NCBI GenBank assembly: GCA_029256085.1
Contig: JAQSYP010000003.1
Location: 3,891 to 67,890, forward strand
Direction of reading: 5' to 3'
Length of the DNA: 64,000 nt
Origin: Bacillales bacterium
GTDB taxonomy: Bacteria > Bacillota > Bacilli > CAJFEE01
Below the pieces are notes generated by a model that had not been told where the DNA came from, did no database searches, and saw only the letters and a list, made by a program, of their open reading frames with translations. Both the position numbers and the translations under genes were made by a program. Shown piece by piece: positions 20,397 to 43,954 of this stretch (the first letter of the stretch is position 1; every line of letters starts with the position of its first letter).

Positions 20397-20487
20397 TTAA
20401 GTTTTTTTGAAGGAATGGCTACACTGGTGGTAGCCTTCCTTTATTTAACTAAAAATCCTATTGTTTCTAATTAGCGAGGTGCAAAAA

Positions 20488-21285: not shown

Positions 21286-21293
21286 GGTGTAGC

Positions 21294-21908: not shown

Positions 21909-21941
21909 TGCCGCTAAGTATTGAAAGAAGGAAACATATAT

Positions 21942-23171
21942 ATGAAATTTTTCAATGTTCATACAGTTGAAGAAGTATTTAACTTAATCGACGATAAAAT
22001 CAAACCTATAGAATATACTGAAAAAGTTCTAATTAGCAACGCATTAAACCGAATATTATCAGTAGATATTTACTCTAATGAAAATGTTCCTAACTTTAGA
22101 CGTTCTACTGTAGATGGTTATGCTGTAAAAGCAGATGATACCTTTGGATCAAGCGAGTCAATGCCTGGTTTTCTTAACTTAATCGGTGAAATTAAGATGG
22201 GTGAGGAACCTTCTAGTGAAGTTAATTACGGAGAGGCAATGTATGTTCCAACAGGAGGAATGGTTCCTGACGGTGCTACTTCAGTAGTGATGATTGAACA
22301 CTGCGAAGAAATTGAATCACTTTTGAATGTTTATAGACAAGTTGCCCCGAATGAAAACATAATTCAGGTAGGGGAAGATATAAAAGTTAATGAACTTGTA
22401 CTGTCAAAAGGGAAGAAACTCCGAGCTCAAGAGCTTGGTGCGCTTTCTGCCTTAGGTATACTAGAAGTTGAAGTTTATAAGAAGATAAAAGTCGGCTATA
22501 TTTCAACTGGTGATGAGATAGTTACACCTGACACCATTAAATTAGAAATGGGTAAGGTTAGAGATGTTAATGCAATTACTCTCAACTCTATTTGTAAGCA
22601 AATGGATATTGATTTTATTTACGGAGGTATTGTTAAAGATAGTGAAGATGAGCTTTACAGAGTTACATCGAATTTATTAGCAGAAGTTGATTGCCTAATA
22701 CTTTCAGGTGGTAGTTCAGTTGGAACTAAAGACTACTCTGTAGATGTTATAAATAAATTAGGCAAACCAGGGGTATTTACCCATGGGATTTCTGTAAAAC
22801 CAGGCAAACCGACGATATTATCTATCGCAAATGACAAGCCTGTTATTGGATTACCGGGCCATCCTGTTTCTGCTTTAATAATATTTAAAGTGTTTGGAAC
22901 TACTATCCTTAATAAATATTCTGGTAACCGTAGTAGCTTATTTATTAATAAGATAACAGCTAAACTTACGAAAAATATCCCTTCAGCTGCTGGTAGGGCA
23001 GACTATATAAGAGTTAGCCTAGAAAAAACGGAAACTGGCTGGGATGCGACTCCTATTTTTGGGAAGTCAGGATTAATATCAACTTTAGTATCAAGTGAAG
23101 GTATTGCTGAAATTCCATCGGCTAAAGAAGGGGTTTTAGCTGGAGAATTAATAGAAGTAATACTTTTCTAA
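21942..23171 (+). CDS. moeA: Molybdopterin molybdotransferase MoeA.
   Basis: MoeA N, MoCF-biosynthesis and C-terminal domains. GAAGGA RBS before the ATG at 21942. Confidence 0.8.
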   Translation: MKFFNVHTVEEVFNLIDDKIKPIEYTEKVLISNALNRILSVDIYSNENVPNFRRSTVDGYAVKADDTFGSSESMPGFLNLIGEIKMGEEPSSEVNYGEAMYVPTGGMVPDGATSVVMIEHCEEIESLLNVYRQVAPNENIIQVGEDIKVNELVLSKGKKLRAQELGALSALGILEVEVYKKIKVGYISTGDEIVTPDTIKLEMGKVRDVNAITLNSICKQMDIDFIYGGIVKDSEDELYRVTSNLLAEVDCLILSGGSSVGTKDYSVDVINKLGKPGVFTHGISVKPGKPTILSIANDKPVIGLPGHPVSALIIFKVFGTTILNKYSGNRSSLFINKITAKLTKNIPSAAGRADYIRVSLEKTETGWDATPIFGKSGLISTLVSSEGIAEIPSAKEGVLAGELIEVILF

Positions 23172-23189
23172 CGGGTGTGTGATGCAAAT

Positions 23190-25106
23190 ATGATAAAAAA
23201 TAAATATGAACGTAAAATTTATCTATCAGATATTCCTAGGGAAAAGGCTCTTGAGCAAATATTATCACAATATAAACCGAAACTTAGGACAGTAACTAAA
23301 AATGCGACTGAGTCGATAGGAAACGTAACAGCCGAACCAATTTATGCAAAGAGATCTGTACCACATTATCATGCATCTGCAATGGACGGTATAGCGGTTA
23401 TAGCAGAAAGAACATTTGAAGCTAATGACAATAATCCTTTGCGCTTAATAAAAGGTGAAGACTACTGCATAGTAGATACTGGTAATGAAATAAAGTCTCC
23501 ATATGATTCAGTAATAATGATTGAAAATGTACAAGAGATTGATGAAAATATAGTAGAAATAATAGAACCAGCTACCCCATGGCAACATATTAGACCGATC
23601 GGTGAAGATATGGTCCAAGGTGAAATGCTATTTACGCAAGGTCATAAAATCAGACCAGTGGATCTTGGGGTACTTCTTTCAAGTGGCAATCAATCTGTAA
23701 AGGTTGTTATGCCTCCTAAAGTCACAATAATACCTACTGGTAATGAGCTAGTTTATCCTAGTGAAACAATTGAACCTGGAAAGATTGTTGAATTTAATGG
23801 ATCTGTTATGGCTGCATTCGTATCAGAGTGGGGCGGGCAACCTTTATTACACGAAATAGTAAAAGATAGTCCAGATTCAATTAAAGAAGCGCTTATAAAT
23901 GCTTCGAGGGATTCTGATGTAGTTATAATTAACGCAGGATCGTCTGCTGGATCAAAAGATTATACAGTTCATATAATCTCTGAAATTGGGAAAGTATTTA
24001 CACATGGCGTTGCAACTAGACCAGGAAAACCTGTTATCCTAGGAGAAATTAACGGAACAATAGTAGTTGGATTACCAGGATATCCAGTTTCAGCATATTT
24101 AGCATTGGAATGGTTTATAAAACCGTTAATAAATAAATATAACAATAATAACCATTGTAATAGGCATAAAATTAGTGCTAAACTTGGTCGTAGAATTGTG
24201 TCTACAATGGGTTCAGAAGATTTTGTACGTGTGACTTTAGGGAATATTAATGGAGAGCTAATTGCTAATCCATTGACTAGAGCTGCAGGAGTTACAATGT
24301 CGCTAGTGAAAGCAGATGGTTTACTTGTTGTTCCATCTAACGTCGTTGGTTTTGAACAAGGTGATTATGTTGAAATTGAACTTTATAAATCTATTGAAGA
24401 TATAGAAAAGTCAATAACTATAACAGGTAGTCATGATCTTGCCATAGATATATTGCACTCAATTCTAAAAAATACTAATACTGAGCAGACAATTACATCT
24501 ACTCACGTCGGAAGTATGGCAGGAATAATGGCAATTAAAAAAGGCGAGGCTCATATCGCTGGAATTCATCTGTTAGATCCAGAAACAAAAACGTATAATA
24601 TTCCTTACGTAAAAAAGCATCTAAAAGATAATAATATTGTTATATTGCCTTTTGTAAAAAGAATGCAAGGATGGATTACATCTAGTAATAATTTAAATGA
24701 ATATAGAAATGTTTCTGACCTTGTAAAAAACAAAATACCGTTTGTAAATAGACAAAAAGGTGCAGGAACTAGGATTCTCTTTGACTTGATACTAAGAGAC
24801 AATAACATTAAGCCATCTGAGATTCTTGGATATAATCGTGAGATGTTTACGCATCTAAGTGTTGCTGCAGAAGTTGCACAAACAAATAGTGTAGGACTTG
24901 GAATAGCTCCAGCTGCAGAAGCCATGGGATGTAGTTTCATACCAGTAGCTGAAGAATCATATGATTTACTTATGACTAAGGAATTTTTTGAAAGTCATTC
25001 TGGACAAACGTTATATAAAATCATAACTAGTTTAGAATTCAAACAAGAGGTTGAAAAAATTTCAGGTTATAAGGTTGATACTAATATAGAACCAATTTAT
25101 ATTTAA
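23190..25106 (+). CDS. MoeA-like molybdopterin molybdotransferase fused to a C-terminal periplasmic-binding-protein-like (substrate-binding) domain. The start is uncertain (23175 GTG versus 23190 ATG).
   Basis: N-terminal two-thirds is paralogous to MoeA. The C-terminal ~230 aa resembles a PBP/LysR-substrate-binding fold. Confidence 0.7.
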
Positions 25107-25128
25107 AGAGAAAAAGGGGGACGTTTTA

Positions 25129-25326
25129 ATGTTCAACAATATCGGTGTACCAGGGCTTATTTTAATTTTATTCTTAGTACTAATAATTTTTGGTCCAAAA
25201 AAGCTTCCTGAAATTGGTAGAGCTTTTGGGCAAACATTAAAAGAGTTTAAGAAATCTACTAATGAATTAACAAAAGACATTACAGAAGAAGTAGCAGAAG
25301 TTAAAGACGAGATTAAAAAATTATAA
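25129..25326 (+). CDS. tatA: Twin-arginine translocase subunit TatA/E.
   Basis: 65-aa single TM plus amphipathic helix, with the [11 protein letters not shown] signature. Confidence 0.9.
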
Positions 25327-25421
25327 TTTAAAAATTAAAAGACGAATCTTATATGATTCGCTTTTTCTTTTTGGGCAAAAATATTAAAATTAAGATTATA
25401 CAATATCTTACGAGGTGAGAA

Positions 25422-26840
25422 ATGAATAACCTTTTACGTCAATTGCCACCAATTCATGAGTTACAAAGAAACGATGCATACGAAATATTAAAGAATAAGC
25501 TCAAAGTTGGTGATGAACTAATAACGAATATATTAAAAATAGAAGTCGATGATCTAAGAAAGTTAATCCTTTCGAAAGGGAATTTAGATATTGATAATAT
25601 TGAAAAATATCTATTTGAAAAAGTTAAACACCATTTAAGTAGACTACTACAACCAAGATTAAAAAGAGTAATAAATGCAAGTGGAACAGTCTTACATACA
25701 AATTTAGGTCGATCAAGATTAAGTGACGACGCTATTACAAGAGTTGTTGAAGTAGCTAGAAATTATTCAAACCTTGAATATAATTTAGCTGAGGGTAAGC
25801 GTGGCTCCCGTCATTCAATAATTGAAGAATGGGTTAAATTAGCAACAGGTGCTGAGGCAGCTATGGTAGTAAATAATAATGCAGCAGCCGTTTACCTAAT
25901 TCTTAGAGCACTCGCTAAAGACAAAGAAGTTATTGTTTCGAGGGGGCAATTAGTCGAAATAGGTGGTTCATTTAGAGTTTCATCAATTATGGAGGAAAGT
26001 GGAGCCAAACTGAAAGAGATAGGCACAACTAATAAAACTCATATTAGCGACTATGAAGCTGCTATAACTGAAAATACAGCAATGCTATTAAAAGTACATA
26101 CTTCAAACTTTAAAATTATTGGATTTACAAAAACTGTAGAGTCCGATGAGTTAGTTCAGTTAAGTAATAAACACGACAATGTCATTGTCTATGAAGATTT
26201 AGGCAGTGGTGTTTTATATGACTATAAGAAAGATTGCATTGGGGATGAACCTCTAGTTAAAAGTGTATTAGATCAAGGTGTTGATATTGTTTCTTTTAGT
26301 GGAGATAAACTTCTTGGTGGACCTCAAGCAGGAATAATTGCGGGTAAAAAGCATCTAATTGAAAAACTAAAGAAAAATCAACTAGCACGAGTTCTTAGGG
26401 TTGATAAAATGACCTTAGCTGCATTAGAGGCAACAATATCCGCCTATGTTAGAGGAAATGAATATGCTAAAAGTATTCCAACCGTTAGGAATCTAGTTGA
26501 AACAAAGGATGTTGTTCATCAAAAGGCAATGATGATGGTTGATAAATTAGAATCTACTTCTAGAGGTTATTCTACACGTATCATAGAAGATGTTTCTGAA
26601 ATAGGTGGAGGTACTATGCCTGGTACAACTATCCCAACTTATGTTGTAGAGGTAAAGCATGATGTGGTTTCTACATCATTAATAGATAAAAAACTACATG
26701 AAAATGAAGTAAGTATTATTGGAAGAATCCAAAATGATAAAATCATATTCGATTTACGTACGGTAGAAATTGATGAGATACAAACGATTATAAATGCATT
26801 AATAAAACTTGAGGAACAATATGATTTATCCAGAAAATGA
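25422..26840 (+). CDS. selA: L-seryl-tRNA(Sec) selenium transferase SelA.
   Basis: PLP-lysine motif FSGDKLLGGPQAG. 472 aa. Confidence 0.9.
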   Translation: MNNLLRQLPPIHELQRNDAYEILKNKLKVGDELITNILKIEVDDLRKLILSKGNLDIDNIEKYLFEKVKHHLSRLLQPRLKRVINASGTVLHTNLGRSRLSDDAITRVVEVARNYSNLEYNLAEGKRGSRHSIIEEWVKLATGAEAAMVVNNNAAAVYLILRALAKDKEVIVSRGQLVEIGGSFRVSSIMEESGAKLKEIGTTNKTHISDYEAAITENTAMLLKVHTSNFKIIGFTKTVESDELVQLSNKHDNVIVYEDLGSGVLYDYKKDCIGDEPLVKSVLDQGVDIVSFSGDKLLGGPQAGIIAGKKHLIEKLKKNQLARVLRVDKMTLAALEATISAYVRGNEYAKSIPTVRNLVETKDVVHQKAMMMVDKLESTSRGYSTRIIEDVSEIGGGTMPGTTIPTYVVEVKHDVVSTSLIDKKLHENEVSIIGRIQNDKIIFDLRTVEIDEIQTIINALIKLEEQYDLSRK

Positions 26841-27575: not shown

Positions 27576-28055
27576 ATGAAAAAGTGGTTTGAAGAGAATA
27601 TGATTGCGAGTATTCTTTTGGCAATCCTACGTATATACTTAGGTTTTTCATGGTTAAGTTCAGGATGGTCAAAGGCAACTGGTGAAGGGTTTACAGCTGA
27701 AGGGTTCTTAAAAGGAGCACTTGGACAAACTACGGGTGATCATCCAAGCGTATTACCGTTTTGGGGTGGATTTCTGGAAAACGTGGCACTACCAAATGTC
27801 GGGCTTTTCAATTTCTTAGTAGTTTACGGTGAAATAGCAATTGGAATTGCCCTAATTATTGGTTTATTTACTAGAACAGCTTTAATATTTAGTTTGATTA
27901 TGAATTTCTCATTTATGTTCAGTGGTTCAACCGGTGTTAATCCATATTACGTACTATATGCACTAATTTTATTAATAGGTGGTAGAAATACGGGTAAATA
28001 TGGTGTTGATGGTCTTATTATTGCTAAAAGGTTTGGTAATAGAGCAAGAATGTGA
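27576..28055 (+). CDS. DoxX family membrane protein.
   Basis: 4-TM DoxX signature. Confidence 0.7.
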   Translation: MKKWFEENMIASILLAILRIYLGFSWLSSGWSKATGEGFTAEGFLKGALGQTTGDHPSVLPFWGGFLENVALPNVGLFNFLVVYGEIAIGIALIIGLFTRTALIFSLIMNFSFMFSGSTGVNPYYVLYALILLIGGRNTGKYGVDGLIIAKRFGNRARM

Positions 28056-28107
28056 TATAAATAAACTAGAGCTAGCAAAATGCTGGCTCTAGTTTTATGA
28101 TTAAGAT

Positions 28108-28485
28108 TTATTTAACAACTTCATAATTCCAAGACTGCATTCCACCTTCTACATTATATACAGTCTTAAATCCATTGTTTATAAGAATATCACTTGCACT
28201 TTGTGAACGATTACCACTTCTGCATATTACGAGAATTTCTTTTTCTTTATCTAATTCTCCTAATTGTGCTTCTAAAGTCTGAAGTGGAAATAGCTTCGCT
28301 TCAGGTATATGACCTGAATTATATTCTTCTATTGTTCTTACATCAATTAGAACTACTTCATCTGGATTAGAACCTAGCATGTTTTTCGCTTCCTCAGTTG
28401 TGACATTTTTCCAACCAGAACTACTACAACCACTGATAAATACTGAGATTAAAACAAAGAAAATAATTTTACTAAAAAATTTCAT
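28108..28485 (-). CDS. Rhodanese-domain lipoprotein (single-domain sulfurtransferase).
   Basis: Lipobox LISVFISGC. Active-site loop CRSGNRS. Confidence 0.8.
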   Translation of the reverse strand: MKFFSKIIFFVLISVFISGCSSSGWKNVTTEEAKNMLGSNPDEVVLIDVRTIEEYNSGHIPEAKLFPLQTLEAQLGELDKEKEILVICRSGNRSQSASDILINNGFKTVYNVEGGMQSWNYEVVK

Positions 28486-28781
28486 ATTTAGTCACCTCGT
28501 AAGTATACCCTTTAGGGTATTATATATATATAAATTATAAGTTAACATAAGTAAGGGTACAATTATAATTTAGAAGTTTTGTAACAAAAATCTAGCATTT
28601 TGAACAATTTGTGAAAAAAGTATCGAGAATTTATCGATTTATCTCCAGTACACAGAATGTTCAAACCTGAGCATATGAACTTTAATAGTTTCCTATTATA
28701 TTTATAGTAAGAACCTATTATGTAAGCGTTTATATGCGGCTTGAAATTAACATGTCAGATATTTTTTAAGGGGTTGAATCA

Positions 28782-29804
28782 ATGTTTAAGAAATTAATAG
28801 CTACAGTAACGACTATGATATTAGTTCTATCACCTTTTACATTAGTAGCTAACGCAGAAACTAATACGGTGGATCTTCAGAAATTCCCGTACAAATCAGT
28901 TGCAATCCAGGTTATGCCAGAATATGATTATCCACAAAATTATCCAACGGATCAGCCAGTTGTGTTAGTGGGGTACTATGGTACGATGACTAATAAAACC
29001 GGAAGTGATTACAATGGAGAAATCGCTATTCCACTTCCAGTAAACGAAAAATATTTTCAAATATATATAGCTGCAGAATTCCCAGAGGAAAATAAGCCTG
29101 AAGTTCAGAGACCTTATAAGATCGATAAAGAAAAAGGTCTTATAACTTGGAAACCTTCTAATCCTATTAAAAAGGATGCAGATTATAAGTTTGTAGTAGA
29201 ATATTATTCGAATCCGATAGAAGTTGGAGATTCTAAGAAGTTTCCATTTGTATATACTGCACCTGCAAATGTAGATGCAATCGATATTCTGTTCTTTGCT
29301 CCGGCAAAATCAACAGATTTCAAAACAGATATTCCAGCAACAACAGTTTCTAAGACTGACTATAATGAAACACTTCTTGCATACCAGTATAAAAACCTAA
29401 AGGCTGGAGAGAAGAAAGCTTTTAACGTTTCTTATGTAAAAAAGGACAACTCTTCAACACTATCGAATATTAAACAGAACCCACCTGAAGCGAATCAATC
29501 AGGGTCAAATACTACAACTACAGAAAGTAGACCTATAATTGACGCTGTAGGGGCTTCGATAATTGGTGGATCTTTAATAATAATGGGATTTTTCATTTTC
29601 TTAGGATATAAACAAAAAGGTTCAACACCACCTTCTAAGAGTAATGTAAAGCACAAGAACAGTTCAACAAAGCAGCAACAGTCGGCACCAAAGAAAAATA
29701 ATAGCGTGTCAGTAATGGATGAGAAGAAAAAGCTTAGAAAAATGTTGCTTAATGGCGAGATAGATCAAGAAACTTACGAACTTAAACTATCAAAATTAGA
29801 ATAA
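28782..29804 (+). CDS. Uncharacterised bitopic membrane protein with a signal peptide, an ~250-aa extracytoplasmic domain, one TM and a cytoplasmic SHOCT-like tail. Paralogous in architecture to the 33287-34279 product.
   Basis: Signal peptide …LVANA. TM GASIIGGSLIIMGFFIFLGY. C-terminal LRKMLLNGEIDQETYELKLSKLE (SHOCT pattern). Confidence 0.6.
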   Translation: MFKKLIATVTTMILVLSPFTLVANAETNTVDLQKFPYKSVAIQVMPEYDYPQNYPTDQPVVLVGYYGTMTNKTGSDYNGEIAIPLPVNEKYFQIYIAAEFPEENKPEVQRPYKIDKEKGLITWKPSNPIKKDADYKFVVEYYSNPIEVGDSKKFPFVYTAPANVDAIDILFFAPAKSTDFKTDIPATTVSKTDYNETLLAYQYKNLKAGEKKAFNVSYVKKDNSSTLSNIKQNPPEANQSGSNTTTTESRPIIDAVGASIIGGSLIIMGFFIFLGYKQKGSTPPSKSNVKHKNSSTKQQQSAPKKNNSVSVMDEKKKLRKMLLNGEIDQETYELKLSKLE

Positions 29805-29819
29805 TAGGGGGAAAATAAG

Positions 29820-30284
29820 ATGAGTAAAAATGCAAAAATGATTGGTGGATCTCTAGTAATTGCAGTTGCGATTTTATTCCTATTAATTGCGGCAACACCA
29901 GGTTCAAGTGGAGTAGAGCTTAAATTAGCTGAACTACTAAAAGATCAACAAGAGTACACAGATGATTATGTAACTGTTGAAGGATTATTAATCGAGGATT
30001 CTATTAAATGGGATGCAGATAAAATCCAACTTAAATTTGACGTTCAAGATGAGAACGGTAAGAAGTTAAGTGTAATATATAACGGTGTTAAACCTGATAA
30101 TTTTTCTGAAGGTGTAATTACAATTTTACAAGGTAGTCCTGACGAGGAAAAAGCTGGTTTATTCCATGCAGAAACTGTAAAAACAAGATGTCCTTCAAAA
30201 TATGAAGGTGAGGACATGAAGAACTACGATCCAGAAGCTCACAAAGATAAGTTAAATAAAAAATCAGAAGAAGAGACAAAATAA
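29820..30284 (+). CDS. ccmE: Cytochrome c-type biogenesis heme chaperone CcmE, variant with a C-x3-Y (CPSKY) heme-binding motif in place of H-x3-Y.
   Basis: N-terminal TM. OB-fold core aligns with E. coli CcmE ([21 protein letters not shown] ~ [34 protein letters not shown] ~ AKEVLAKHDENYT). Confidence 0.8.
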   Translation: [154 protein letters not shown]

Positions 30285-30317
30285 AACTAAACTAGTAAAT
30301 TGAAAGGTGAAAACCAA

Positions 30318-32300
30318 ATGTATCTATTAGGAAACATATCAATTTACCTAGGATTAGCATTATCAATTTATTCACTAATTGTTTTAGTACTTGGTGTTAT
30401 TAAACAAAACCAAAGACTAATTAACAGCGGTAAAGGTGCTGCAATTAGTGTATTTATTTCTATGGCTACTGCAACTGCAGTAATGCTATACTTCCTAGGT
30501 ACATCTAACTTTCAGATTGAATACGTAAGAGATTACACAAGTTCTGAACTTCCAATGGGTTATAAGTTATCAGCACTTTGGGCAGGAAACTCTGGGTCTT
30601 TAATGCTTTGGAATTTATTCTTAACGATGTATATTGTTATGATTGTATTTTCAAGAAAACTTAAAGGGACTCCGTTTATTCCTTATGTTACGGCTATACT
30701 AATGGGTAATGCAGTGTTTTTCTACTTTGTATTAGGGTTTGTTGCTAAACCTTTCGTTCTGTTAGAGACAGCTCCTGCAGAAGGACACGGCTTAAATCCG
30801 ATGTTACAAAATCCTGGTATGTTAATACATCCAGTAACACTTTATTTAGGTTATGTTGGACTAGCTGTACCATTTGCATTTGCTATGGCAGCTTTAATAA
30901 TCAAAAATATGGATGATTTCTGGATTAAGATAACGAGAAGATGGACAATCATCGCTTGGTTATTCTTGAGTTTAGGTAATATTTTAGGTGCTCAGTGGGC
31001 ATACGTGGAATTAGGATGGGGTGGCTATTGGGCATGGGATCCAGTAGAAAATGCATCATTCATGCCATGGCTAACAGCTACTGCATATCTACACTCAGTA
31101 ATGATTCAAGAACGTAAAAACATGTTAAAAGTTTGGAATATAGCATTAATTATTACTTCGTATGCATTAACGTTATTTGGGACTTTCCTAGTACGAAGTG
31201 GAGTTCTTACATCAGTACATGCTTTTGCGAACTCTTCACTAGGTACATGGTTCTTAGTGTATATGACTATCGCATTACTAGGCGGACTTTATGTTGTGTT
31301 TAGTAGATATCATTTAATTAAACGCGATGCTGGTCAATTCCAGTCATACTTATCAAAAGAAAGTAGCTTCCTATTTAATAACCTTATCTTAGTTGGATCT
31401 GCTTTTGCGGTATTCTGGGGAACAATATTCCCAATCGTATCAGAAGCTATTAAAGGTAAGAAAGTAACAGTAGGTATACCTTTCTTTAACACTGTACAAG
31501 CTCCGTTACTTTTATCATTAATTTTTATCATGGCAGTTTGTCCACTAATCGCTTGGCAGAGATCTTCTGGGAAAAACTTAGTTAAGAATTTCTTAATACC
31601 GGCATTAGTAAGTTTAGGGATAGCAATACTTTTATTTATACTTGAAGTTACAAAGCCTTGGGCATTAATTAGTTATACGGTAGTTGCATTTATGATTCTT
31701 ACTCACGTTTCAGAATTTATCAAAGGAACAAGAGCTAGAATGAAAATGACAGGTGAAATGATTCCTGTAGCATTATATCGTTTAGCTGTTAGAAATCGCA
31801 GAAGATACGGTGGGTATATCGTCCATTTTGGTATTGCGTTAATAGCACTAGGCATCATTGGTTCACAGAACTATGAGACAGAAATAATGAAAACAGTATC
31901 TCAAGGTGAAGTAATTAGAATAAACAACTATGCTATTACTTATGAGAAATTAGATCAAAAGTCGGAAGGCATAAATGATATTATCTATGCTGATCTATCA
32001 ATTCAACACGCTGGAAAACCAATTGGTATTTTCGAACCTGAGAAGGTTTTCTACGGTAACTGGGATCAACCATCTACAGAAGTTTCTCTTTACAGTACAT
32101 GGAAAGAAGACTTATATATTACATTAAATAACTGGGAAGATGATGGACGAGCGACATTCCATATCAAGGTAATTCCAGGAATGCAGTTAATGTGGACAGG
32201 TTCTATATTATTAGTTATAGGAACGTTGTTTGCAATTTGGAGTGGTAAGTTTGGTAATATTACTCCAAGATACACAGGTAATCAAAAAGACGTATTTTAA
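30318..32300 (+). CDS. ccmF: Cytochrome c-type biogenesis protein CcmF (heme lyase subunit).
   Basis: WWD domain WGGYWAWDPVENASFMPWL. Polytopic, about 660 aa. Confidence 0.9.
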   Translation: MYLLGNISIYLGLALSIYSLIVLVLGVIKQNQRLINSGKGAAISVFISMATATAVMLYFLGTSNFQIEYVRDYTSSELPMGYKLSALWAGNSGSLMLWNLFLTMYIVMIVFSRKLKGTPFIPYVTAILMGNAVFFYFVLGFVAKPFVLLETAPAEGHGLNPMLQNPGMLIHPVTLYLGYVGLAVPFAFAMAALIIKNMDDFWIKITRRWTIIAWLFLSLGNILGAQWAYVELGWGGYWAWDPVENASFMPWLTATAYLHSVMIQERKNMLKVWNIALIITSYALTLFGTFLVRSGVLTSVHAFANSSLGTWFLVYMTIALLGGLYVVFSRYHLIKRDAGQFQSYLSKESSFLFNNLILVGSAFAVFWGTIFPIVSEAIKGKKVTVGIPFFNTVQAPLLLSLIFIMAVCPLIAWQRSSGKNLVKNFLIPALVSLGIAILLFILEVTKPWALISYTVVAFMILTHVSEFIKGTRARMKMTGEMIPVALYRLAVRNRRRYGGYIVHFGIALIALGIIGSQNYETEIMKTVSQGEVIRINNYAITYEKLDQKSEGINDIIYADLSIQHAGKPIGIFEPEKVFYGNWDQPSTEVSLYSTWKEDLYITLNNWEDDGRATFHIKVIPGMQLMWTGSILLVIGTLFAIWSGKFGNITPRYTGNQKDVF

Positions 32301-32309
32301 TTAAAGCAG

Positions 32310-32346
32310 CTGGGGGAGAGTCTTTCTCCCCAGAGCTTTTTTTGAG
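32310..32346 (+). terminator. Strong intrinsic terminator between ccmF and the ccmH-like gene.
   Basis: ctgggggagag-tctt-tctccccag hairpin followed by TTTTTTT. Confidence 0.65.
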
Positions 32347-32386
32347 TATATAAGGTATTTCAAAAGCTACCCAAGGGGGTAAAAAA

Positions 32387-32896
32387 ATGTGGGTTAGAAA
32401 GTTAATAGTTACACTGGTTGCCTTTTCTTTTCTAGGGTTTGGACAAATCGTTCAAGCTGAGGAGGAATTCGAACCATATAAGGATGAATACTATACTCCT
32501 GAATTTAGAGCAGTTGCTAGAAAAATTAAGTCTTTAGACAGTTGTTCGTCACTATATGATTGTCCAACAGGCCCATTAGTAAGAACCGCAAAACCAGATA
32601 TAGTTAAAATGATAAGTGAAGGTAAAACAACCGAAGAGATACTAGATTATTTCGTAGATACTTACGGTGAAGAAATTCTAATTGAACCAAAGAAAAAAGG
32701 TTTTAATATTGCAGCATACGCAGTTCCTGCAGCTATTATTGTTGGAGCAACAGGACTAATTGTATATGCAATAAGATTTTGGACAAGAACCTCTAGAACA
32801 GAGGAAGAAGAAAATGTTGTAGAAGATTCTCAAGATGAAACAGAATCAGAAATTATGAAAAAAATGATAGACGAAGAACGAAAAAAGTTTCTTTAG
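32387..32896 (+). CDS. ccmH: CcmH/CycL-like cytochrome c biogenesis protein with a non-canonical Cys motif (C-SSLYD-C instead of LRCxxC).
   Basis: Signal peptide; GKTTEEILDYFVDTYGEEIL aligns with the CcmH core GKSKKEIVDYMVARYGNFV; a C-terminal TM follows. Confidence 0.65.
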   Translation: MWVRKLIVTLVAFSFLGFGQIVQAEEEFEPYKDEYYTPEFRAVARKIKSLDSCSSLYDCPTGPLVRTAKPDIVKMISEGKTTEEILDYFVDTYGEEILIEPKKKGFNIAAYAVPAAIIVGATGLIVYAIRFWTRTSRTEEEENVVEDSQDETESEIMKKMIDEERKKFL

Positions 32897-32907
32897 GATG
32901 TGAAAAC

Positions 32908-33285
32908 ATGGAAGGTCAATTAACTACAATTGCAATGATAGCGTCTGCACTTCTTGTTTTAGGTTGTTTATATTTAACTATTTCTCCATTTTTCGTGCTT
33001 GATGAAGGTACATTCGAGTTGAAATTTACTAAAAATAAGAATAAGACTCAAAGTCACAAAGAAGCACTATACTCAACACTAAACGAAATTGAGATAGAGC
33101 ATAAAATGGGTAAAATCTCTGATGACGATTATAAGGAATTAACAAACAAGTATGAGACTATGATCGCGAAAATGATGAAAGACGATGATTTTGTTTCTAT
33201 TGATAATATTGATAACAAACTATTAAGTGAGATAGAAAAAGAAATTCAAGAAGAGCTGGACAAGAGGGAAAAAGGAGGTAAGTAG
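32908..33285 (+). CDS. Small membrane protein (N-terminal TM) with a cytoplasmic SHOCT-like domain.
   Basis: TM at residues 7-30, then MGKISDDDYKELTNKYETMIAKM (SHOCT pattern). 125 aa. Confidence 0.5.
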   Translation: MEGQLTTIAMIASALLVLGCLYLTISPFFVLDEGTFELKFTKNKNKTQSHKEALYSTLNEIEIEHKMGKISDDDYKELTNKYETMIAKMMKDDDFVSIDNIDNKLLSEIEKEIQEELDKREKGGK

Positions 33286-33286
33286 T

Positions 33287-34279
33287 TTGAAAAAATTCTT
33301 AAAGATTGCTTTAACCGCGCTACTTTCTCTACCCTTATTTTCTAACACAGTTCTAGCGGCAGCAAATATAGTCTATGAAAGTAATCATGTTATTTTTCAA
33401 CCAATCAATGAAAATACAATTAAGATAACATCAATGGCTACACTAGTAAATAGTGGGGATGATAAATTTGAAGGTAAAGTAGGGTATGGGTTACCTCTAA
33501 ATTACTCAAATCTTCAAATTGGCGATCAATCAATTAAGCCAACGAATGAGGCAAATGCTTTTACAATCGACGCTACTATAGCTCCAAATGAAAAGAAATC
33601 AATTTCATACTCTAACGATCAAGGCTTAACTAATAATGTAGCGAAAATTGATTTTGTCTATCCTCATGATGTACAAGTATTAAATATTCTAATACCTAAA
33701 GATACTGCTGAGGTAACTATTACTGGAGCAAAGTTCGAAGATAAAGGTGAATTCCCTTTTGAAAGTACAACTTTAAAACAATACGAAATTAAAGACTTAA
33801 AAGCTAATACAAAAGTTACAATTGATTACAAAAGAAACCCTAATGCACCAGCGCAAACTGGAACTGAAGGCACTCAAAACAACCAGAACCAAGAAACTGA
33901 TCAAAGTAATGTAACAAGAAAAGCACCACAATTTCATAACCCTGGACATTTAAGAATGTGGAACCAATCTGCTTTAAGTAGCTTTGACCCACACATTCTT
34001 TTGATAGTTCTAGGAATTATATTGGTGGCTATAGTTGTCTATTTTGCTTATTTTGAAATGAAACGCAGAAAACAACTAGAACACGTGAAATCTGATCAAG
34101 AAGAAAGAGTATTTAAACAACTTATTGCTAAGAGAAGTGCTATAATGAACAAGATTTTAGAGTTGGAAGAAGAATATAACTCTGGAAACATATCTGATGA
34201 AGATTACACTAAGAAAATGGAAGCATATAAGAATCACCTAATCCAAGTCAAACTTAGCCTTCGCGATTTTGTTGAATAA
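33287..34279 (+). CDS. Uncharacterised bitopic membrane protein (signal peptide, extracytoplasmic domain, TM, cytoplasmic SHOCT-like tail); paralogous in architecture to the 28782-29804 product.
   Basis: TTG start with a GGAGG RBS. Signal peptide …TVLAAAN. TM ILLIVLGIILVAIVVYFAYF. C-terminal SGNISDEDYTKKMEAYKNHLIQ. Confidence 0.6.
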   Translation: MKKFLKIALTALLSLPLFSNTVLAAANIVYESNHVIFQPINENTIKITSMATLVNSGDDKFEGKVGYGLPLNYSNLQIGDQSIKPTNEANAFTIDATIAPNEKKSISYSNDQGLTNNVAKIDFVYPHDVQVLNILIPKDTAEVTITGAKFEDKGEFPFESTTLKQYEIKDLKANTKVTIDYKRNPNAPAQTGTEGTQNNQNQETDQSNVTRKAPQFHNPGHLRMWNQSALSSFDPHILLIVLGIILVAIVVYFAYFEMKRRKQLEHVKSDQEERVFKQLIAKRSAIMNKILELEEEYNSGNISDEDYTKKMEAYKNHLIQVKLSLRDFVE

Positions 34280-34296
34280 TGATTGGAGTGCAACCA

Positions 34297-35010
34297 ATGA
34301 TTAAAATTGATAATTTAATAAAACGTGTTGGTGACAAAGTTATTTTAAAAGGTGTTTCACTTAATATAACAAAAGGTGAAACAGTAGGAATTCTTGGACC
34401 AAATGGTGCGGGTAAAAGTACACTTTTAAAGGTAATTGCTACTTTACTAAAGCCTACATCAGGGGAAGTTACTATTGACGGGTTAGACCTGAAAAAGGAT
34501 CCTATTAAAATTAAAAGTAAACTAGGGTATTTACCACATGCTAGCTTATTATATGATCACTTTACACCTTATGAAAATCTAAAGTTCTTTTCTAAAGTGT
34601 ATTACTTAGATAATGTTGAAGAAAGAATTCATAAACTTATAGATGATGTCGGTTTAAGGCTATTTACTCATGAACCAGTTAAATCATTCTCTAGAGGTAT
34701 GGTTCAAAGAATTGCAATTGCAAGATCTATTATACATGATCCTGAAATACTACTTTTAGACGAACCACATACCGGCTTAGACCAACAGGCAATTGGTATA
34801 CTTAACAACGTCGTTGCGAAACTTCAGGAAAGAGATGTTACAACTCTTATCGTAACTCATGATTTTTTACAAGCAGCAAAAGTATGCGATAGGATAGTAA
34901 TAGTAAGAAATGGTAGGATAGCAGACGATTTCCTGCTAGAAGGACAAGATATAAACCTTTTACAGAAACGATATCAATCGGTCGTAGAGGGGGATTCTAA
35001 TGCTATTTAA
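34297..35010 (+). CDS. ccmA: Heme exporter ATP-binding protein CcmA (ABC). An alternative start at 34279 overlaps the upstream stop.
   Basis: Walker A GPNGAGKST and ABC signature. Confidence 0.85.
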   Translation: MIKIDNLIKRVGDKVILKGVSLNITKGETVGILGPNGAGKSTLLKVIATLLKPTSGEVTIDGLDLKKDPIKIKSKLGYLPHASLLYDHFTPYENLKFFSKVYYLDNVEERIHKLIDDVGLRLFTHEPVKSFSRGMVQRIAIARSIIHDPEILLLDEPHTGLDQQAIGILNNVVAKLQERDVTTLIVTHDFLQAAKVCDRIVIVRNGRIADDFLLEGQDINLLQKRYQSVVEGDSNAI

Positions 35011-35677
35011 AGGTGCAATGGCTTTAGCCTGGAAAGATCTTTATACTGAATGGAAGACAAAACAAACTATAAGTACGATGCTTATTTTTGCGGGATTAGT
35101 TGTAATTGTATTTAGTTTTGCTTTTGATCCTATGAACACGACAGTTAAAGCAATAATTCCTGGATTGATTTGGGTAATTATTGTGTTTGCAGGTTTATTA
35201 GGACTTAACCGCTCCTTTACTTCTGAGGGCAAGAATGACACAATACACGCACTTATAGTTGCTCCATTAGATCCTAGTAGTATCTATCTTGGGAAGTTCA
35301 TTTCAAATCTTGTTATGATACTTATAGTTGAAATTATTTCAATACCGTTCCTTTTTATCTTATTTGATTTTAAATTTCATGCTAATCTTTTATATTTTAT
35401 TTTAACTATTTTTATTGGAACATTTGGATTCGTTAGTGCAGGAACATTTCTAGCAGCATTAAGCTCAAACTCAAGAAGTTCAGAGATGCTACTCCCAATA
35501 ATTCTGTTTCCAATATCGACTCCAATATTAATAGGTGCTGTTCAAGCAACTAAAATACAATTAATTAGCCCAGATAAATTTGCTAGTGCGATTTCATGGA
35601 TGCAATTAATTACAGCCTACGATTTAATAATTTTCGTAGCGTGCTTTATACTATATGAATATGTTCAGGAGGTGTAG
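35000..35677 (+). CDS. ccmB: Heme exporter permease CcmB.
   Basis: 6-TM CcmB family. Start overlaps the ccmA stop (ATGCTATTTAA). Confidence 0.8.
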   Translation: MLFKGAMALAWKDLYTEWKTKQTISTMLIFAGLVVIVFSFAFDPMNTTVKAIIPGLIWVIIVFAGLLGLNRSFTSEGKNDTIHALIVAPLDPSSIYLGKFISNLVMILIVEIISIPFLFILFDFKFHANLLYFILTIFIGTFGFVSAGTFLAALSSNSRSSEMLLPIILFPISTPILIGAVQATKIQLISPDKFASAISWMQLITAYDLIIFVACFILYEYVQEV

Positions 35678-35679
35678 TC

Positions 35680-36429
35680 ATGAAAAAATATCAAGATATA
35701 GAACTAGACTATGCAAAAGGAGTACAACCAGTTTCCACAATCCATAAGCTTTTAACGTATACAACTGCGATTTTATTTATTGTACTAGTATACATGGCAT
35801 TCATCTACTCACCAGTTGAAAAAACGATGGGACCAGTTCAAAAAATATTTTATGCACATGTTCCTTCTGCGTGGATTGCTGGTGTAGCATTTTTAGGAGT
35901 TTTTATTTTAAGTATTGCATTCCTTATAACTAGAAAAAGAATATACGATTTATATGCTGGAATCTCAGCTGAAATCGGTGTTGTATTTACTACAATCGTT
36001 TTAACTACTGGGCCAATTTGGGGACGCTCATCATGGAATAGCTGGTGGTCATGGGAACCAAGACTAACAACTACACTAATCTTATGGTTTATCTATTTAG
36101 CATACGTAATGATTAGACATATGGATTCTCCTTGGGATAAGAGAGCAAGACTAGCTGCAGTATTCGGTATAATAGGATTCTTAGATGTACCAATTGTATT
36201 CTTTGCTATCCGTTGGTGGAATACAAAAATGCATCCAATAGTATTTGGTGAAGGTAAAGACCAAAGTGGTGGTGGTCTTGAACCAGAAATGTTAGCAACA
36301 TTATTTGTTGGTTTAGGAGCATTTACGTTATTGTACATTGTACTATTGCAAAAAGGTGTAATGATTGAGAAAGCAAAAATAGCAGTACAGGCTTATAAAG
36401 AAAAATTACAAGATAAATTAGTTCGATAG
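35680..36429 (+). CDS. ccmC: Heme exporter protein CcmC.
   Basis: WWD motif WNSWWSWEPRLT. Confidence 0.85.
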   Translation: MKKYQDIELDYAKGVQPVSTIHKLLTYTTAILFIVLVYMAFIYSPVEKTMGPVQKIFYAHVPSAWIAGVAFLGVFILSIAFLITRKRIYDLYAGISAEIGVVFTTIVLTTGPIWGRSSWNSWWSWEPRLTTTLILWFIYLAYVMIRHMDSPWDKRARLAAVFGIIGFLDVPIVFFAIRWWNTKMHPIVFGEGKDQSGGGLEPEMLATLFVGLGAFTLLYIVLLQKGVMIEKAKIAVQAYKEKLQDKLVR

Positions 36430-36441
36430 GAGGCTACTAAT

Positions 36442-36567
36442 ATGGGATATTTAGCATCTGCTTACGGAGTAACTTGGTTTTTAATAGCAGCTTACATGCT
36501 TTTTCTAGGAAAAAAGCAAAGTGACATCGTAAAAGAAATTAAATTTTTAAAAGAGTTAGACAAATAA
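36442..36567 (+). CDS. ccmD: Heme exporter protein CcmD (41 aa, single TM); not in the ORF track.
   Basis: GGAGG RBS 6 nt upstream. MGYLASAYGVTWFLIAAYMLFLGKKQ… small TM peptide between ccmC and ccmG, as in canonical ccm operons. Confidence 0.6.
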   Translation: MGYLASAYGVTWFLIAAYMLFLGKKQSDIVKEIKFLKELDK

Positions 36568-36585
36568 AAAGGGGGCGTTCCATCT

Positions 36586-37104
36586 ATGGGTTCGCGCAAA
36601 ATACTACAAATCGTAGTTCTTGCCATTGTAGTTGGTTTACTAGCTTTCTTTGCCCTTGGCTTAAAATCTAACTTCAACAAAATAGAAAAAGGCGATCAAG
36701 CTTTCCTATTTGAAGCTGATAACATGGATAAGAAGAAGGTAAATCTAAACGATTATAAGGGTCAAGTAATTGTTTTAAACTTCTTTACTAGTTGGTGTGA
36801 TCCGTGTCGTGACGAAGTGTATGAGCTTGAGGAATTTAACAAAGAAGTTAAAGACTCTGGTAAGGCTGTTTTCTTTATTGTAGATAGAGGAGAAACACAA
36901 AAGCACGTTCAGAAGTTTATTGATGAATTTGATACTAAATCAGAGTACTTATTTGACTATAATCACTCGATATCAGAGAAATATGGCGTTGTTGGACAAC
37001 CCGAGACTTTAATAATTGATAAAAAGGGTGTTCTTAGAGAACATTTATTAGGACCGACAACAACACAGGAATTACTTTTCCTTGTGGATAAGTACAATAA
37101 ATAA
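36586..37104 (+). CDS. ccmG: Thiol:disulfide interchange protein CcmG/DsbE (membrane-anchored thioredoxin-like).
   Basis: WCDPC active site with an N-terminal TM. Confidence 0.85.
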   Translation: MGSRKILQIVVLAIVVGLLAFFALGLKSNFNKIEKGDQAFLFEADNMDKKKVNLNDYKGQVIVLNFFTSWCDPCRDEVYELEEFNKEVKDSGKAVFFIVDRGETQKHVQKFIDEFDTKSEYLFDYNHSISEKYGVVGQPETLIIDKKGVLREHLLGPTTTQELLFLVDKYNK

Positions 37105-37109: not shown

Positions 37110-37148
37110 TGGATGTGTCTAGTGTAAACTGGACACATCTTTTTTTAG
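37110..37148 (+). terminator. Intrinsic terminator after ccmG.
   Basis: gatgtgtctag…ctggacacatc hairpin followed by TTTTTTT. Confidence 0.65.
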
Positions 37149-41951: not shown

Positions 41952-42695
41952 TTATATTGAAAATAATTGTTGAAACTTTTCTGAATCTAAAAAATTACCT
42001 ACAAAAAATTGGCCAAATTCACCATATCTTGCACTTACCTCATCAAATCTCATTTCATAAACTAACTTTTTAAAGTTTAATGGATCGTCTCCAAATAAAG
42101 TAACTCCCCATTCCCAATCATCAAGTCCAACTGATCCAGAAACAATTTGAACAATTTTACCAGCATAATTCCTTCCAGTTTTACCGTGGGATGCCATATG
42201 CTTTCTACGTTCTTCCATAGGTAGCATATACCAATTATCACTCCCTTCACGACGTTTATTCATAGGATAAAAACAAATATGTTTAGTTTTAGGAAGCTTC
42301 GGGTATAATCGTGCTCTAATTTCAGGAACTTGATATGGATCTTCTTCTTTTGATAAGTAGTTACTTAACTCAACAATAGAAACGTAAGAATAAGCTGGTA
42401 AAAAATAATCTGAAATACGTAGCTTATTTAGTTCAAGCTCAGCACTATGTAATTCATCAAGTGTTGGCCTTAAAATCATAAACAAGATATCAGCCTTGTC
42501 CCCGACTACTGAATAAGAACCATGAGAACCTTGGTCTTCTTTTTCAGTTTGTGACCATTTTTTTAATAAGTCTTGTAATTCATTAATTAAAGAAGTTCTT
42601 TCTTCTGAAGGTAATATTCTCCATGAAACCCAATCAATACTTTTTAATATGTGTAACGAGTACCACCCGTCTAATGTTTTTGCTGCCTCAGTCAT
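41952..42695 (-). CDS. hemQ: Coproheme decarboxylase HemQ (chlorite dismutase family; YwfI-like).
   Basis: Chlorite dismutase fold motifs. Adjacent to pta, as in B. subtilis. AGGAGG RBS precedes the ATG at 42695. Confidence 0.8.
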
Positions 42696-42979
42696 TTTAA
42701 TTCCTCCTAAGAACGTGATAATAACTCTCATTTACAGTGTAACATGTTCATTATTTTTTCTAAATTATAATGTTTCTAAGTTATTAAAAATGGTATATAA
42801 TTATATATAACAGAGTGTGTATAATTTGTATAACAACTCCACAAACTGTTATATAATAAGGGTAAATTGGTGAAACATTACCAAAATTTTTTATGAATAA
42901 TTTTCAAAAAAGTATTCTCAGGATTACAAAAATGCATTATTCTAACTATAGAACAATTCATTCATGGGAGGCCTCCAAA

Positions 42980-43954
42980 GTGAGCGACTTATTTTCATTA
43001 TTAAAAGAAAGTATACAAGGTAAAAATACACGTATAGTATTTCCTGAAGGTAAAGACATAAGAGTCTTAAAAGCAGCTGTACGTTTAAAAGTTGAAAATA
43101 TAATAAATCCAGTTGTAATTGGTGATAAGGAAGAACTAGAAAAAATAGCTAGTGATGCTAATTTTAGTTTAACTAATTTAGAAATAATTAATCCAAACAC
43201 TTATGAAAAATTCGATGAGATGGTAGCATCATTTGTTGAAAGAAGAAAAGGCAAAGTTACTCTTGAAGATGCACATAAAATCTTAAAAGATGTAAATTAC
43301 TTTGGGACAATGTTGGTTTATTTAGAAATGGCAGATGGATTAGTTAGCGGTGCAATTCACTCAACTGGGGATACTGTTAGACCTGCATTGCAAATAATAA
43401 AGACTAGACCAGGGGTTTCAAGGACATCAGGTGTATTTATAATGGCTCGTAATGATGATAGATACGTTTTTGCTGATTGTGCAATTAACATCTCTCCAAA
43501 CAGTACTGACCTAGCTGAAATAGCAATAGAGAGTGCTAAAACTGCCGAGATGTTTGGAATTGAACCTAGAGTTGCGATGTTATCATTCTCGACAAAAGGT
43601 TCAGCCCATTCGCCTGAAACAACAAAGGTAGAAGAGGCAACGGCAATTGCACAAGAAATGGCACCAAATTTAGTCATAGACGGTGAGCTTCAATTTGATG
43701 CAGCGATTGTACCTTCAGTTGCAAAGCAAAAAGCTCCAAATTCAAAAATTAAAGGTGATGCAACAGTGTTTGTCTTCCCTACATTAGAAGCTGGAAATAT
43801 CGGCTATAAAATTGCTCAAAGACTAGGTGGATTTGATGCAGTAGGGCCAATCCTTCAAGGTCTTAACAAGCCTGTTAATGACTTATCTAGAGGTTGTAGT
43901 GAAGAAGATGTTTACAAATTGGCAATTATTACTGCGGCTCAAGCAGGTTTCTAA
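42980..43954 (+). CDS. pta: Phosphate acetyltransferase.
   Basis: GTG start with a GGGAGG RBS. The N-terminus VSDLFSLLKE…IVFPEGKD matches Pta. Confidence 0.85.
   Translation: MSDLFSLLKESIQGKNTRIVFPEGKDIRVLKAAVRLKVENIINPVVIGDKEELEKIASDANFSLTNLEIINPNTYEKFDEMVASFVERRKGKVTLEDAHKILKDVNYFGTMLVYLEMADGLVSGAIHSTGDTVRPALQIIKTRPGVSRTSGVFIMARNDDRYVFADCAINISPNSTDLAEIAIESAKTAEMFGIEPRVAMLSFSTKGSAHSPETTKVEEATAIAQEMAPNLVIDGELQFDAAIVPSVAKQKAPNSKIKGDATVFVFPTLEAGNIGYKIAQRLGGFDAVGPILQGLNKPVNDLSRGCSEEDVYKLAIITAAQAGF

Follow-up and report, generated by a model that had tools for sequence, protein, structure and literature searches.

A System I-type cytochrome c maturation cluster with a cysteine CcmE and additional conserved membrane proteins in a Bacillales bacterium

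Eleven genes at positions 28782-37104 of a 64,000-nucleotide stretch of contig JAQSYP010000003.1 from a Bacillales bacterium (GenBank assembly GCA_029256085.1; the whole stretch is the window below) form a System I, or Ccm, cytochrome c maturation cluster. All are on the forward strand, in the order X1-ccmE-ccmF-ccmH-like-X2-X3-ccmA-ccmB-ccmC-ccmD-ResA/CcmG-like, where X1, X2, and X3 denote predicted membrane proteins that match no known family. We consider it very probable that Bacillales have here maintained, by vertical descent, a functional version of System I*, the form of System I with a cysteine-type CcmE, and that the region is organized as one operon. Eight Ccm component families were assigned with Pfam and NCBIfam models, which bears out the initial annotation of this DNA as a System I cluster. 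The open reading frames (ORFs) also agree exactly with the coordinates that it gave, and its eight Ccm genes all stand, although X1, X2, and X3 went unmentioned.

The assignment to System I* turns on CcmE. The ccmE gene (29820..30284) encodes a membrane-anchored haem chaperone that matches PF03100 with an E value of 2e-21 and 76.7 bits, against a cutoff of 24.6. System I* has been defined by a CcmE in which Cys substitutes for the His that binds haem and the Tyr is kept, CPSKY being the majority motif (PMC3601427), and this is what the protein carries: where canonical CcmE has H-x3-Y (H-D-E-N-Y in E. coli), we find R123-C124-P125-S126-K127-Y128, in the context VKTR-CPSKY-EG. The closest solved structure is that of the Cys-variant CcmE of Desulfovibrio vulgaris (2KCT; the other PDB matches were 1SR3 and 8CE8), whose TKCP aligns with the TRCP here. 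The exchange of His for Cys with retention of the Tyr had been read correctly in the initial annotation. The alignment across relatives points the same way: CPSKY is invariant in the 120 best CcmE homologues (64-100% identity), every one of which has Cys, and none His, at the haem-binding position. A profile search of 1.84 billion cluster representatives returned 1,697 CcmE clusters, and C-[PA]-[ST]-[KR]-Y was present in about 130 of the best 149. Every NCBIfam equivalog model for CcmE scores this protein below its cutoff, and therefore it appears to belong to a divergent subfamily. Cys-CcmE has been reported mainly from delta-proteobacteria, although "chloroflexi and firmicutes also feature" (Stevens et al. 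2011, PMC3601427), and CPSKY occurred in 25 of the 36 Cys-CcmE proteins of that survey. With Firmicutes already listed there and CPSKY in all 120 best homologues, the earlier statement that the C-x3-Y form is chiefly a trait of archaea and sulfate reducers was not supported. In Methanosarcina acetivorans, the Cys of C-x3-Y is needed for haem binding by CcmE (Gupta et al. 2022, PMC9084895), and the System I* of D. desulfuricans is functional in a heterologous host, as summarized in PMC9084895 and PMC3601427. By analogy, the CcmE described here is predicted to hold haem through Cys124 and to pass it to apocytochromes.

The other haem-handling proteins belong to the families of canonical System I. 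The alignment of CcmF, the core of the haem lyase/synthetase (30300..32300; PF16327 and PF01578), with Thermus thermophilus CcmF 6ZMQ covers the whole protein (E 1e-110) and shows that the WWD-domain motif WGGYWAWDPVEN and four histidines (IHP, YLHS, SVHAF, and IVHFG) are kept, as System I requires; the start codon is uncertain, and the Joint Genome Institute (JGI) product has 660 amino acids and starts at 30318. The CcmABC(D) module for haem export and loading is likewise present. It comprises the ABC ATPase CcmA (34279..35010; PF00005, and TIGR01189 at 136.3 bits against a cutoff of 131.6), the ABC-2 membrane subunit CcmB (35000..35677; PF03379, E 5e-31), and the WWD-domain haem-handling protein CcmC (35680..36429; PF01578, TIGR01191), in which the HVP, the W-rich motif, and the WWNT..H histidine of E. 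coli CcmC 7F02 are all kept, both His included. It is completed by CcmD (36442..36567), 41 amino acids with a single transmembrane (TM) helix, which matches the TIGR04391 CcmD_alt_fam model at 45.6 bits (cutoff 24, E 5e-12) and was found in 71 of the 81 loci compared. The last gene (36586..37104) encodes a ResA/CcmG-like, membrane-anchored thiol-disulfide oxidoreductase with a thioredoxin fold and the motif WCDPC (AhpC-TSA, Redoxin, and Thioredoxin_8 matches). Its best NCBIfam match was ResA (PRK03147, 102.7 bits, cutoff 170), followed by DsbE at 52 bits, both below cutoff, and WCxPC was conserved in 77 of 77 relatives. The ResB/CcsB and ResC/CcsA proteins that mark System II were not found in the window, where the sole ResB signal was a sub-threshold 17 bits in the CcmF C-terminus, and neither resB nor resC was seen in any relative locus that we fetched.

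The CcmH of this cluster is not the textbook protein. The ccmH-like gene (32387..32896) encodes a protein with a signal peptide and an ectodomain of the CcmH fold, which a single TM helix connects to an acidic tail in the cytoplasm. It scores 62.5 bits against PF03918 (cutoff 25), so the earlier "ccmH-like" call stands at the level of the family, but the CxxC that defines canonical CcmH is missing (sequence KSLDSCSSLYDC). Relative to E. coli CcmH (2KW0), with its LRCxxC, a Ser takes the place of the first Cys while the second is unchanged, leaving S-LD-S-C...C where System I would have the redox-active (LR)CxxC. Five cysteines, arranged as C-T-C-G-C-G-Q-x3-4-C-x4-C, were present in the CcmH-like proteins of 76 of 77 relatives; the pattern is C-N-C-N-C...C...C in Paenibacillus and C-x3-C-x6-C in Microaerobacter. 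Of these cysteines, only the third and fourth occur in all lineages examined, and both are retained here. The C-x-C-G-C-G string of a Neobacillus PCYCGC protein, described below, resembles the Cys patch of the Neobacillus CcmH-like proteins; kinship with the PCYCGC family (PF13798) was considered, but the Pfam E value was 0.44 and we claim no relationship.

These losses could be taken to mean that the system is decaying in this metagenome-assembled genome (MAG), having shed an adjacent cytochrome gene and most CcmH cysteines until no maturation is left. The CcmH-like protein keeps only two of the five cysteines and is 33-39% identical to the Neobacillus copies, while CcmF and CcmA-C reach 60-70%, and the gene pair for a PCYCGC lipoprotein and a dihaem cytochrome that lies upstream of the module in most relatives is absent from the window. 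However, all reading frames are intact, and pairwise comparison with a sister MAG (JGI 3300042923, locus L087; dS 0.14-0.65) gave ratios of nonsynonymous to synonymous divergence (dN/dS) of 0.07 for X1, 0.03 for CcmE, 0.014 for CcmF, 0.075 for the CcmH-like protein, 0.03 for X2, 0.014 for X3, 0.00-0.02 for CcmA-D, and 0.04 for the oxidoreductase. All eleven genes are thus under purifying selection, with no value above 0.075, which makes decay unlikely. The two-Cys form S-LDS-C...C of the CcmH-like protein is itself kept in the sister MAG at a dS of about 0.6, and the two cysteines that remain are precisely the universal ones. We therefore regard decay as very improbable.

The module is shared with relatives. 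When each GTDB species was represented by a single genome, this CcmE was encoded in at least 128 of the genomes scanned, mostly of Neobacillus and Mesobacillus, and in about 75 of the 80 loci that we fetched from these 128 for gene-order comparison (Neobacillus, Mesobacillus, and Pseudoneobacillus) the full order X1-E-F-H-X2-X3-A-B-C-D-oxidoreductase is preserved. Nearly all of the 120 best CcmE homologues come from Neobacillus, Mesobacillus, Pseudoneobacillus, or "Bacillus sp.", and are named CcmE at NCBI. The nearest named relatives beyond the Neobacillus group are Microaerobacter geothermalis and Paenibacillus athensensis, and the module, including X1, X2, and X3, is also found in both of these and in two further metagenome contigs, with the oxidoreductase gene at the front of the module in some of these outgroup loci. 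The initial annotation had presented the cluster as unusual for a Bacillus-type genome, a claim that would fail if close relatives carried it alongside System II. The first half of that proviso, presence in close relatives, is what we observed, and with synteny in close and distant relatives alike and at least 128 species genomes, the cluster can hardly be called unusual. Two of the loci (L025 and L038, from Bacillus sp. T33-2 and Mesobacillus subterraneus) have a module without ccmABCD, the oxidoreductase gene coming straight after X3, and in three (L038, L055, and L056) tblastn detected no CcmH-like ORF between ccmF and X2; the module may have been reduced naturally in these genomes, unless the missing genes are located elsewhere in them. 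The sister MAG bin (K0S34) also encodes, on a 7.2 kb contig, a second CcmE (protein P0084) of the Pseudoneobacillus type, 70% identical, which means that either the organism has a second ccm cluster or the bin is contaminated.

Recent horizontal acquisition, for example from sulfate reducers, would make the cluster an island foreign to the Bacillus backbone. It would be in keeping with the prevalence of Cys-CcmE in delta-proteobacteria (PMC3601427) and with a position that varies by lineage, between efp and spoIIIA in Neobacillus, beside a selenocysteine/formate dehydrogenase island here, and next to multihaem cytochrome genes in Paenibacillus. The composition of the cluster argues otherwise. 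The ccm genes have a G+C content (GC) of 0.338 against 0.337 for the rest of the window, a GC at third codon positions (GC3) of 0.233 against 0.225, and a relative synonymous codon usage inside the window's gene-to-gene scatter; the comparison with the flanks that had been proposed at the outset thus shows no difference, and the composition is native. Moreover, the nearest CcmE relatives are all Bacillales, and all lineages examined have X1, X2, and X3, which are specific to Bacillales, within the module. That last observation argues for long residence in Bacillales with rearrangement rather than recent import, and we think there is very little chance that the island is a newcomer.

X1, X2, and X3 are the least familiar part of the cluster. 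X1 (28782..29804; 340 amino acids) has a signal peptide, an ectodomain of about 230 amino acids, one TM helix, and a Lys-rich cytoplasmic tail that ends in a SHOCT-like helix, LLNGEIDQETYE. X2 (32908..33285; 125 amino acids) consists of an N-terminal TM helix and a cytoplasmic coiled-coil with M-G-K-I-S-x3-Y, and X3 (33287..34279; 330 amino acids), which like X1 has a signal peptide, combines an all-beta ectodomain with a TM helix and a long helical hairpin in the cytoplasm. The ectodomains of X1 and X3 span some 160-230 amino acids. None of the three matched a Pfam or NCBIfam family at permissive thresholds, where we saw only sub-threshold noise save for the weak SHOCT (PF09851) match of X1, which at 15.5 bits (E 0.014) falls short of the cutoff of 27; X2 and X3 gave no SHOCT hit. 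By eye, a G-x-I-x3-Y turn can be recognized in the tails of X1 (LLNGEIDQETYE), X2 (MGKISDDDYKE), and X3 (SGNISDEDYTK), and it is conserved within each family. The X1 and X3 families are distant paralogues (hhalign probability 92%, E 7e-7, 245 columns). Directly outside its TM helix, at the outer membrane face, X3 carries the motif F-H-N-P-G-H-L-R-M-W-x-x-S-x-L-x3-P-H, in which F216, H217, W225, S228, L230, P235, and H236 are invariant in both alignments, Paenibacillus included, and N218-P219-G220-H221 in the Bacillaceae set only. The AlphaFold model of X3 (predicted local distance difference test score, pLDDT, 82) has an all-beta ectodomain, a disordered linker, a short amphipathic segment bearing the motif, and a long hairpin formed by the TM and cytoplasmic helices. 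Searches of the PDB with this fold returned only a generic beta-sandwich/ribophorin-like match: identity with Ribophorin I (OST1) of the eukaryotic oligosaccharyltransferase was 8-11% with TM-scores of 0.33-0.38, and sandwiches of this type also occur in the N-domains of M1 aminopeptidases; we see no evidence of homology or shared function with Ribophorin I.

X1, X2, and X3 are most simply read, from their gene order, topology, and selection, as lineage-specific accessory subunits of the maturation machinery that possibly substitute for the absent TPR protein CcmI. It may be instead that they are unrelated envelope proteins that merely travel with a machine composed of CcmABCDEFH and the oxidoreductase. 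They do lack a family, their fold match is to a common beta-sandwich, the conserved His pair of X3 provides their only haem-type residues, and no such proteins are needed by the systems of archaea and Desulfovibrio (PMC9084895, PMC3601427). We nonetheless think this explanation unlikely, while giving it some weight, since passengers would hardly hold fixed positions in overlapping or abutting frames, X1 before ccmE and X2-X3 between ccmH and ccmA, across at least three Bacillales families at 21-45% identity. X1 lies directly 5' of ccmE in 81 of 81 loci and also in Paenibacillus and Microaerobacter, and the position of X2 is kept in 79 of 81 loci and in the outgroups. X3 homologues, all named "hypothetical protein", were found only in Bacillales and only in ccm clusters; a family profile search in which 8000 prefiltered candidates were scored added Paenibacillus-type members only. 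Finally, purifying selection on X1-X3 is as strong as on CcmF.

A bolder proposal, which we offer tentatively, goes beyond an accessory role and holds that X1, X2, X3, and the Cys-variant CcmH are unrecognized subunits of a System I haem-lyase complex specific to monoderms. It is conceivable, if rather doubtful, that the beta-sandwich ectodomains of X1 and X3 stand in for CcmI by catching apocytochromes exported through Sec, or holo-CcmE, at the membrane surface. The two histidines that are invariant in X3 close to the membrane (F-H...P-H) might act in haem handling, a suggestion that we hold with equal caution. As speculatively, the variable C-x-C-x-C...C...C patch of CcmH might have taken over the redox chemistry of CxxC.

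By analogy with work on E. coli, Desulfovibrio, and Methanosarcina, we suggest the following route for haem through the accessory-subunit form of System I* favoured here. CcmABCD would bring haem to the outer face of the membrane and load it onto membrane-anchored CcmE, where Cys124 would replace the haem-binding His of proteobacteria and Tyr128 would be an axial ligand. Holo-CcmE would then pass the haem to CcmF, with its WWD domain and four conserved His, and CcmF, together with the CcmH-like protein, would form the thioether bonds to the CxxCH of Sec-exported apocytochromes. The ResA/CcmG-like oxidoreductase would hold the CxxCH cysteines reduced, presumably by way of a CcdA encoded elsewhere. 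X1-X3 would serve as accessory subunits, most likely as a scaffold or apocytochrome-handling module in place of the missing TPR CcmI, with the beta-sandwich ectodomains of X1 and X3 joined with X2 through the shared cytoplasmic G-x-I-x3-Y helices.

Transcription of 28782-37104 as a single operon is part of the same overall interpretation, and we are as confident of it as of the rest. All eleven ORFs are co-directional and overlap or abut, the sole sizeable gap within the operon being the 86 nucleotides between ccmF and the ccmH-like gene. Within that gap lies a GC-rich hairpin of 8 bp (32313..32331, forward strand) with a weak T-tail, which may be an internal attenuator or RNA-stability element. 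At the two ends of the region are promoter-like and terminator-like sites. The best sigma-70-like match in the 296-nucleotide gap upstream of X1 is TTAACA-16-TATAAT (28542..28569, forward strand; 11/12), a match to consensus only, with promoter-like sites in the region no more frequent than expected from shuffled sequence. Seven nucleotides past the last gene, a 13-bp stem followed by a T7 run (37111..37140, forward strand) resembles an intrinsic terminator.

As the initial annotation had it, there is no apocytochrome c gene in the window: a scan of all six frames for CxxCH and CxxCK yielded only Fe-S-type motifs, and CxxCH occurs in no real ORF, the one similar string being a CxxxCH in the Fe-S protein FdnH. 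FdnH is encoded in a complete selenocysteine/formate dehydrogenase island (12826-26840) upstream of the ccm cluster. This island contains tRNA-Sec (12826-12922, minus strand), selB (13020-14903), FdnG, which is the Tat-exported alpha subunit of formate dehydrogenase-N with an in-frame UGA at 16515-16517 (HQARI*HSPTV), fdhD, the cytochrome b FdnI, mobA, two moeA genes (one with a PBP-like domain fusion), tatA, and selA (25422-26840). It also holds an ORF of 274 amino acids (20461-21285) that matches no Pfam family. Between the island and the ccm cluster are genes for UDG, DoxX, and a rhodanese lipoprotein. The latter two, a DoxX/DoxD-family membrane protein and a divergent rhodanese lipoprotein (signal ...FISGC), lie at 27576-28485, directly 5' of X1, and tblastn placed a rhodanese homologue at the same site in about 14 of 80 related loci (for example L006, L011, L013, L023, and L056); the lipoprotein may represent an extracytoplasmic sulfur or thiol function tied to the ccm cluster.

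Clues to the clients come from relatives. In Neobacillus, two genes directly precede X1, one for a PCYCGC lipoprotein (PF13798) and the other for a class I cytochrome c of the dihaem type (two CxxCH; 217-235 amino acids), as in N. vireti (L042, 7362-8561) and at the same place in about 75 other loci, and the whole block sits between efp and spoIIIAA; both members of this pair are absent from our window. Directly 5' of the module in P. athensensis (L082, 641-8300) and in locus L084 (1-4828) are genes for two large multihaem cytochromes, with 6 and 7 CxxCH, that show fn3 and faint MtrC/MtrF-like matches; they are accompanied by NHL-repeat, TPR, and DUF4082 proteins, with a flavodoxin downstream, and the neighbourhood looks like a Gram-positive gene set for extracellular electron transfer. 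In Bacillus azotoformans, nrfHA is linked to ccmEFHABC (BAZO_03265-03300; Heylen & Keltjens 2012, PMC3475470). Because the genes that adjoin the module in relatives thus encode dihaem, 6- and 7-haem cytochromes, and NrfHA, we infer that the likely clients are cytochromes of anaerobic respiration: NrfHA, multihaem electron-transfer proteins, and dihaem class I cytochromes. The adjacent formate dehydrogenase-N island is consistent with that theme but proves nothing. Housekeeping cytochromes are normally assigned to System II.

The same neighbours raise the question of whether the cluster might be a haem lyase of the NrfEFG kind, dedicated to the CxxCK active-site haem of NrfA alone, while System II does the rest. 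The best NCBIfam match of CcmF is in fact the NrfE subfamily TIGR03145 (429 bits), the CcmH-like protein weakly matches NrfF, nrfHA adjoins the B. azotoformans cluster (PMC3475470), and formate dehydrogenase-N genes adjoin the one described here. The NrfE score, however, is far below its cutoff of 927 and equal to that of the generic CcmF/NrfE family, the NF007691 score is 323 against a cutoff of 394, and neither an NrfG partner nor linkage to nrfA was found: there is no gene for a TPR NrfG, and the six-frame scan revealed no nrfA in the window. In addition, the operon encodes CcmABCDE, the complete arm for haem delivery, where a lyase of the Nrf type borrows this arm and has no copy of its own, and the neighbour in most relatives is a dihaem CxxCH cytochrome or multihaem cytochromes without CxxCK. 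A dedicated NrfA lyase therefore seems improbable to us.

Several points nevertheless weigh against a functional System I*. We know of no experimental study of a System I from any Gram-positive organism. The CxxC that is held to be essential in E. coli CcmH is missing from the CcmH-like protein, the 64 kb window contains no client cytochrome, and neither ccdA nor dsbD lies within the cluster. As for X1-X3, the case for a role consists of conserved gene order, topology, and a generic fold match.

The backbone into which the cluster is set is that of a spore-former. The presence of gerQ, a cwlJ-like gene, and hemQ(chdC)-pta in the window agrees with the earlier description of a Bacillus-type genome. 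The last large protein of the window, the pyrG product, also has an identical copy on a 10.4 kb contig of another assembly (Logan SRR35185192), whose housekeeping genes follow a B. subtilis-like order, rpoE-pyrG-spo0F-fbaA-tal-murAB-glpX-rho-rpmE-tdk. The exact CcmE sequence is that of contig Ga0456364_0000204 (196 kb) in JGI metagenome 3300042934, and its NCBI entry reads "MAG: Bacillales bacterium". On these grounds we take the backbone to be of the Bacillus type. The hemQ/chdC and pta genes (41952-43954) lie 5 kb 3' of the ccm operon and are arranged as ywfI-pta in B. subtilis; hemQ/chdC belongs to the coproporphyrin-dependent route of haem synthesis that is typical of Firmicutes.

In general reviews, System II is still assigned to Gram-positive bacteria or Bacillota, yet a large block of soil Bacillales (Neobacillus, Mesobacillus, and some Paenibacillus) carries a complete System I*, and in several relatives it adjoins genes for nitrite-ammonifying or multihaem electron-transfer cytochromes. 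A Cys-CcmE System I* in Firmicutes is, as such, already in the literature and is common in the clade. Three details look new: X1-X3 as conserved members of the module, the non-canonical CcmH, and the setting of the cluster in this MAG, beside a selenocysteine/formate dehydrogenase island and without the dihaem cytochrome gene of Neobacillus. We found no prior description of the first two, and no paper linking ccmF with Neobacillus or discussing X1-X3. The culturable Neobacillus and B. azotoformans provide a genetically accessible setting for three questions about Ccm: how haem is released by a Cys-linked CcmE, what CcmH does without CxxC, and what replaces CcmI, for which X1-X3 are concrete candidates. 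For annotation, X1-X3 can be labelled as Ccm-associated proteins, and the presence of the cluster may mark those Bacillales that respire anaerobically by means of cytochromes.

Among described systems, the cluster most resembles the System I* of Desulfovibrio desulfuricans and D. vulgaris (Allen et al. 2006; Goddard et al. 2010, as reported in PMC3601427 and PMC3884852), with which it shares a CPSKY CcmE, CcmABCD with CcmD kept, and CcmF. Unlike this cluster, Desulfovibrio System I*, as PMC3601427 reports it, is without CcmH and CcmG and has CcmI; here, there are instead a CcmH-family protein, a ResA/CcmG-like oxidoreductase, three extra membrane proteins, and no TPR CcmI, in a spore-forming monoderm host. 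The absence of CcmH was part of the 2006 description of System I*, and a CcmH-family gene is present here, but this does not exclude membership because about one third of bacteria with Cys-CcmE have CcmH (PMC3601427). The cluster of B. (Schinkia) azotoformans LMG 9581 is, like ours, a System I of the Bacillaceae (PMC3475470), and the eight BAZO locus tags for six named genes would fit E-F-H-X2-X3-A-B-C, judging from tag spacing alone. That cluster abuts nrfHA, whereas the one described here has the selenocysteine/formate dehydrogenase-N island as its neighbour and no cytochrome gene nearby; the CcmE Cys, the CcmH motif, and the extra ORFs pass without comment in PMC3475470. With the canonical System I of E. 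coli and Rhodobacter, CcmABCDEFGH(I), the cluster shares its protein families and the WWD domains and His ligands of CcmC and CcmF, but His130 of CcmE is replaced by Cys, there is neither a CcmH LRCxxC nor a TPR CcmI, the oxidoreductase is nearer to ResA than to DsbE, and CcmD belongs to the "alt" family TIGR04391. The streamlined Ccm of Methanosarcina acetivorans likewise has a C-x3-Y CcmE; archaeal Ccm, however, is without CcmD, CcmH, and CcmI, while this cluster has CcmD, a CcmH-like protein, and X1-X3 (PMC9084895). With System II of B. subtilis (ResA, ResB, ResC, and CcdA), finally, it shares the host lineage and a ResA-like oxidoreductase; unlike System II, it contains no ResB or ResC, and haem would be delivered through an ABC module and CcmE.

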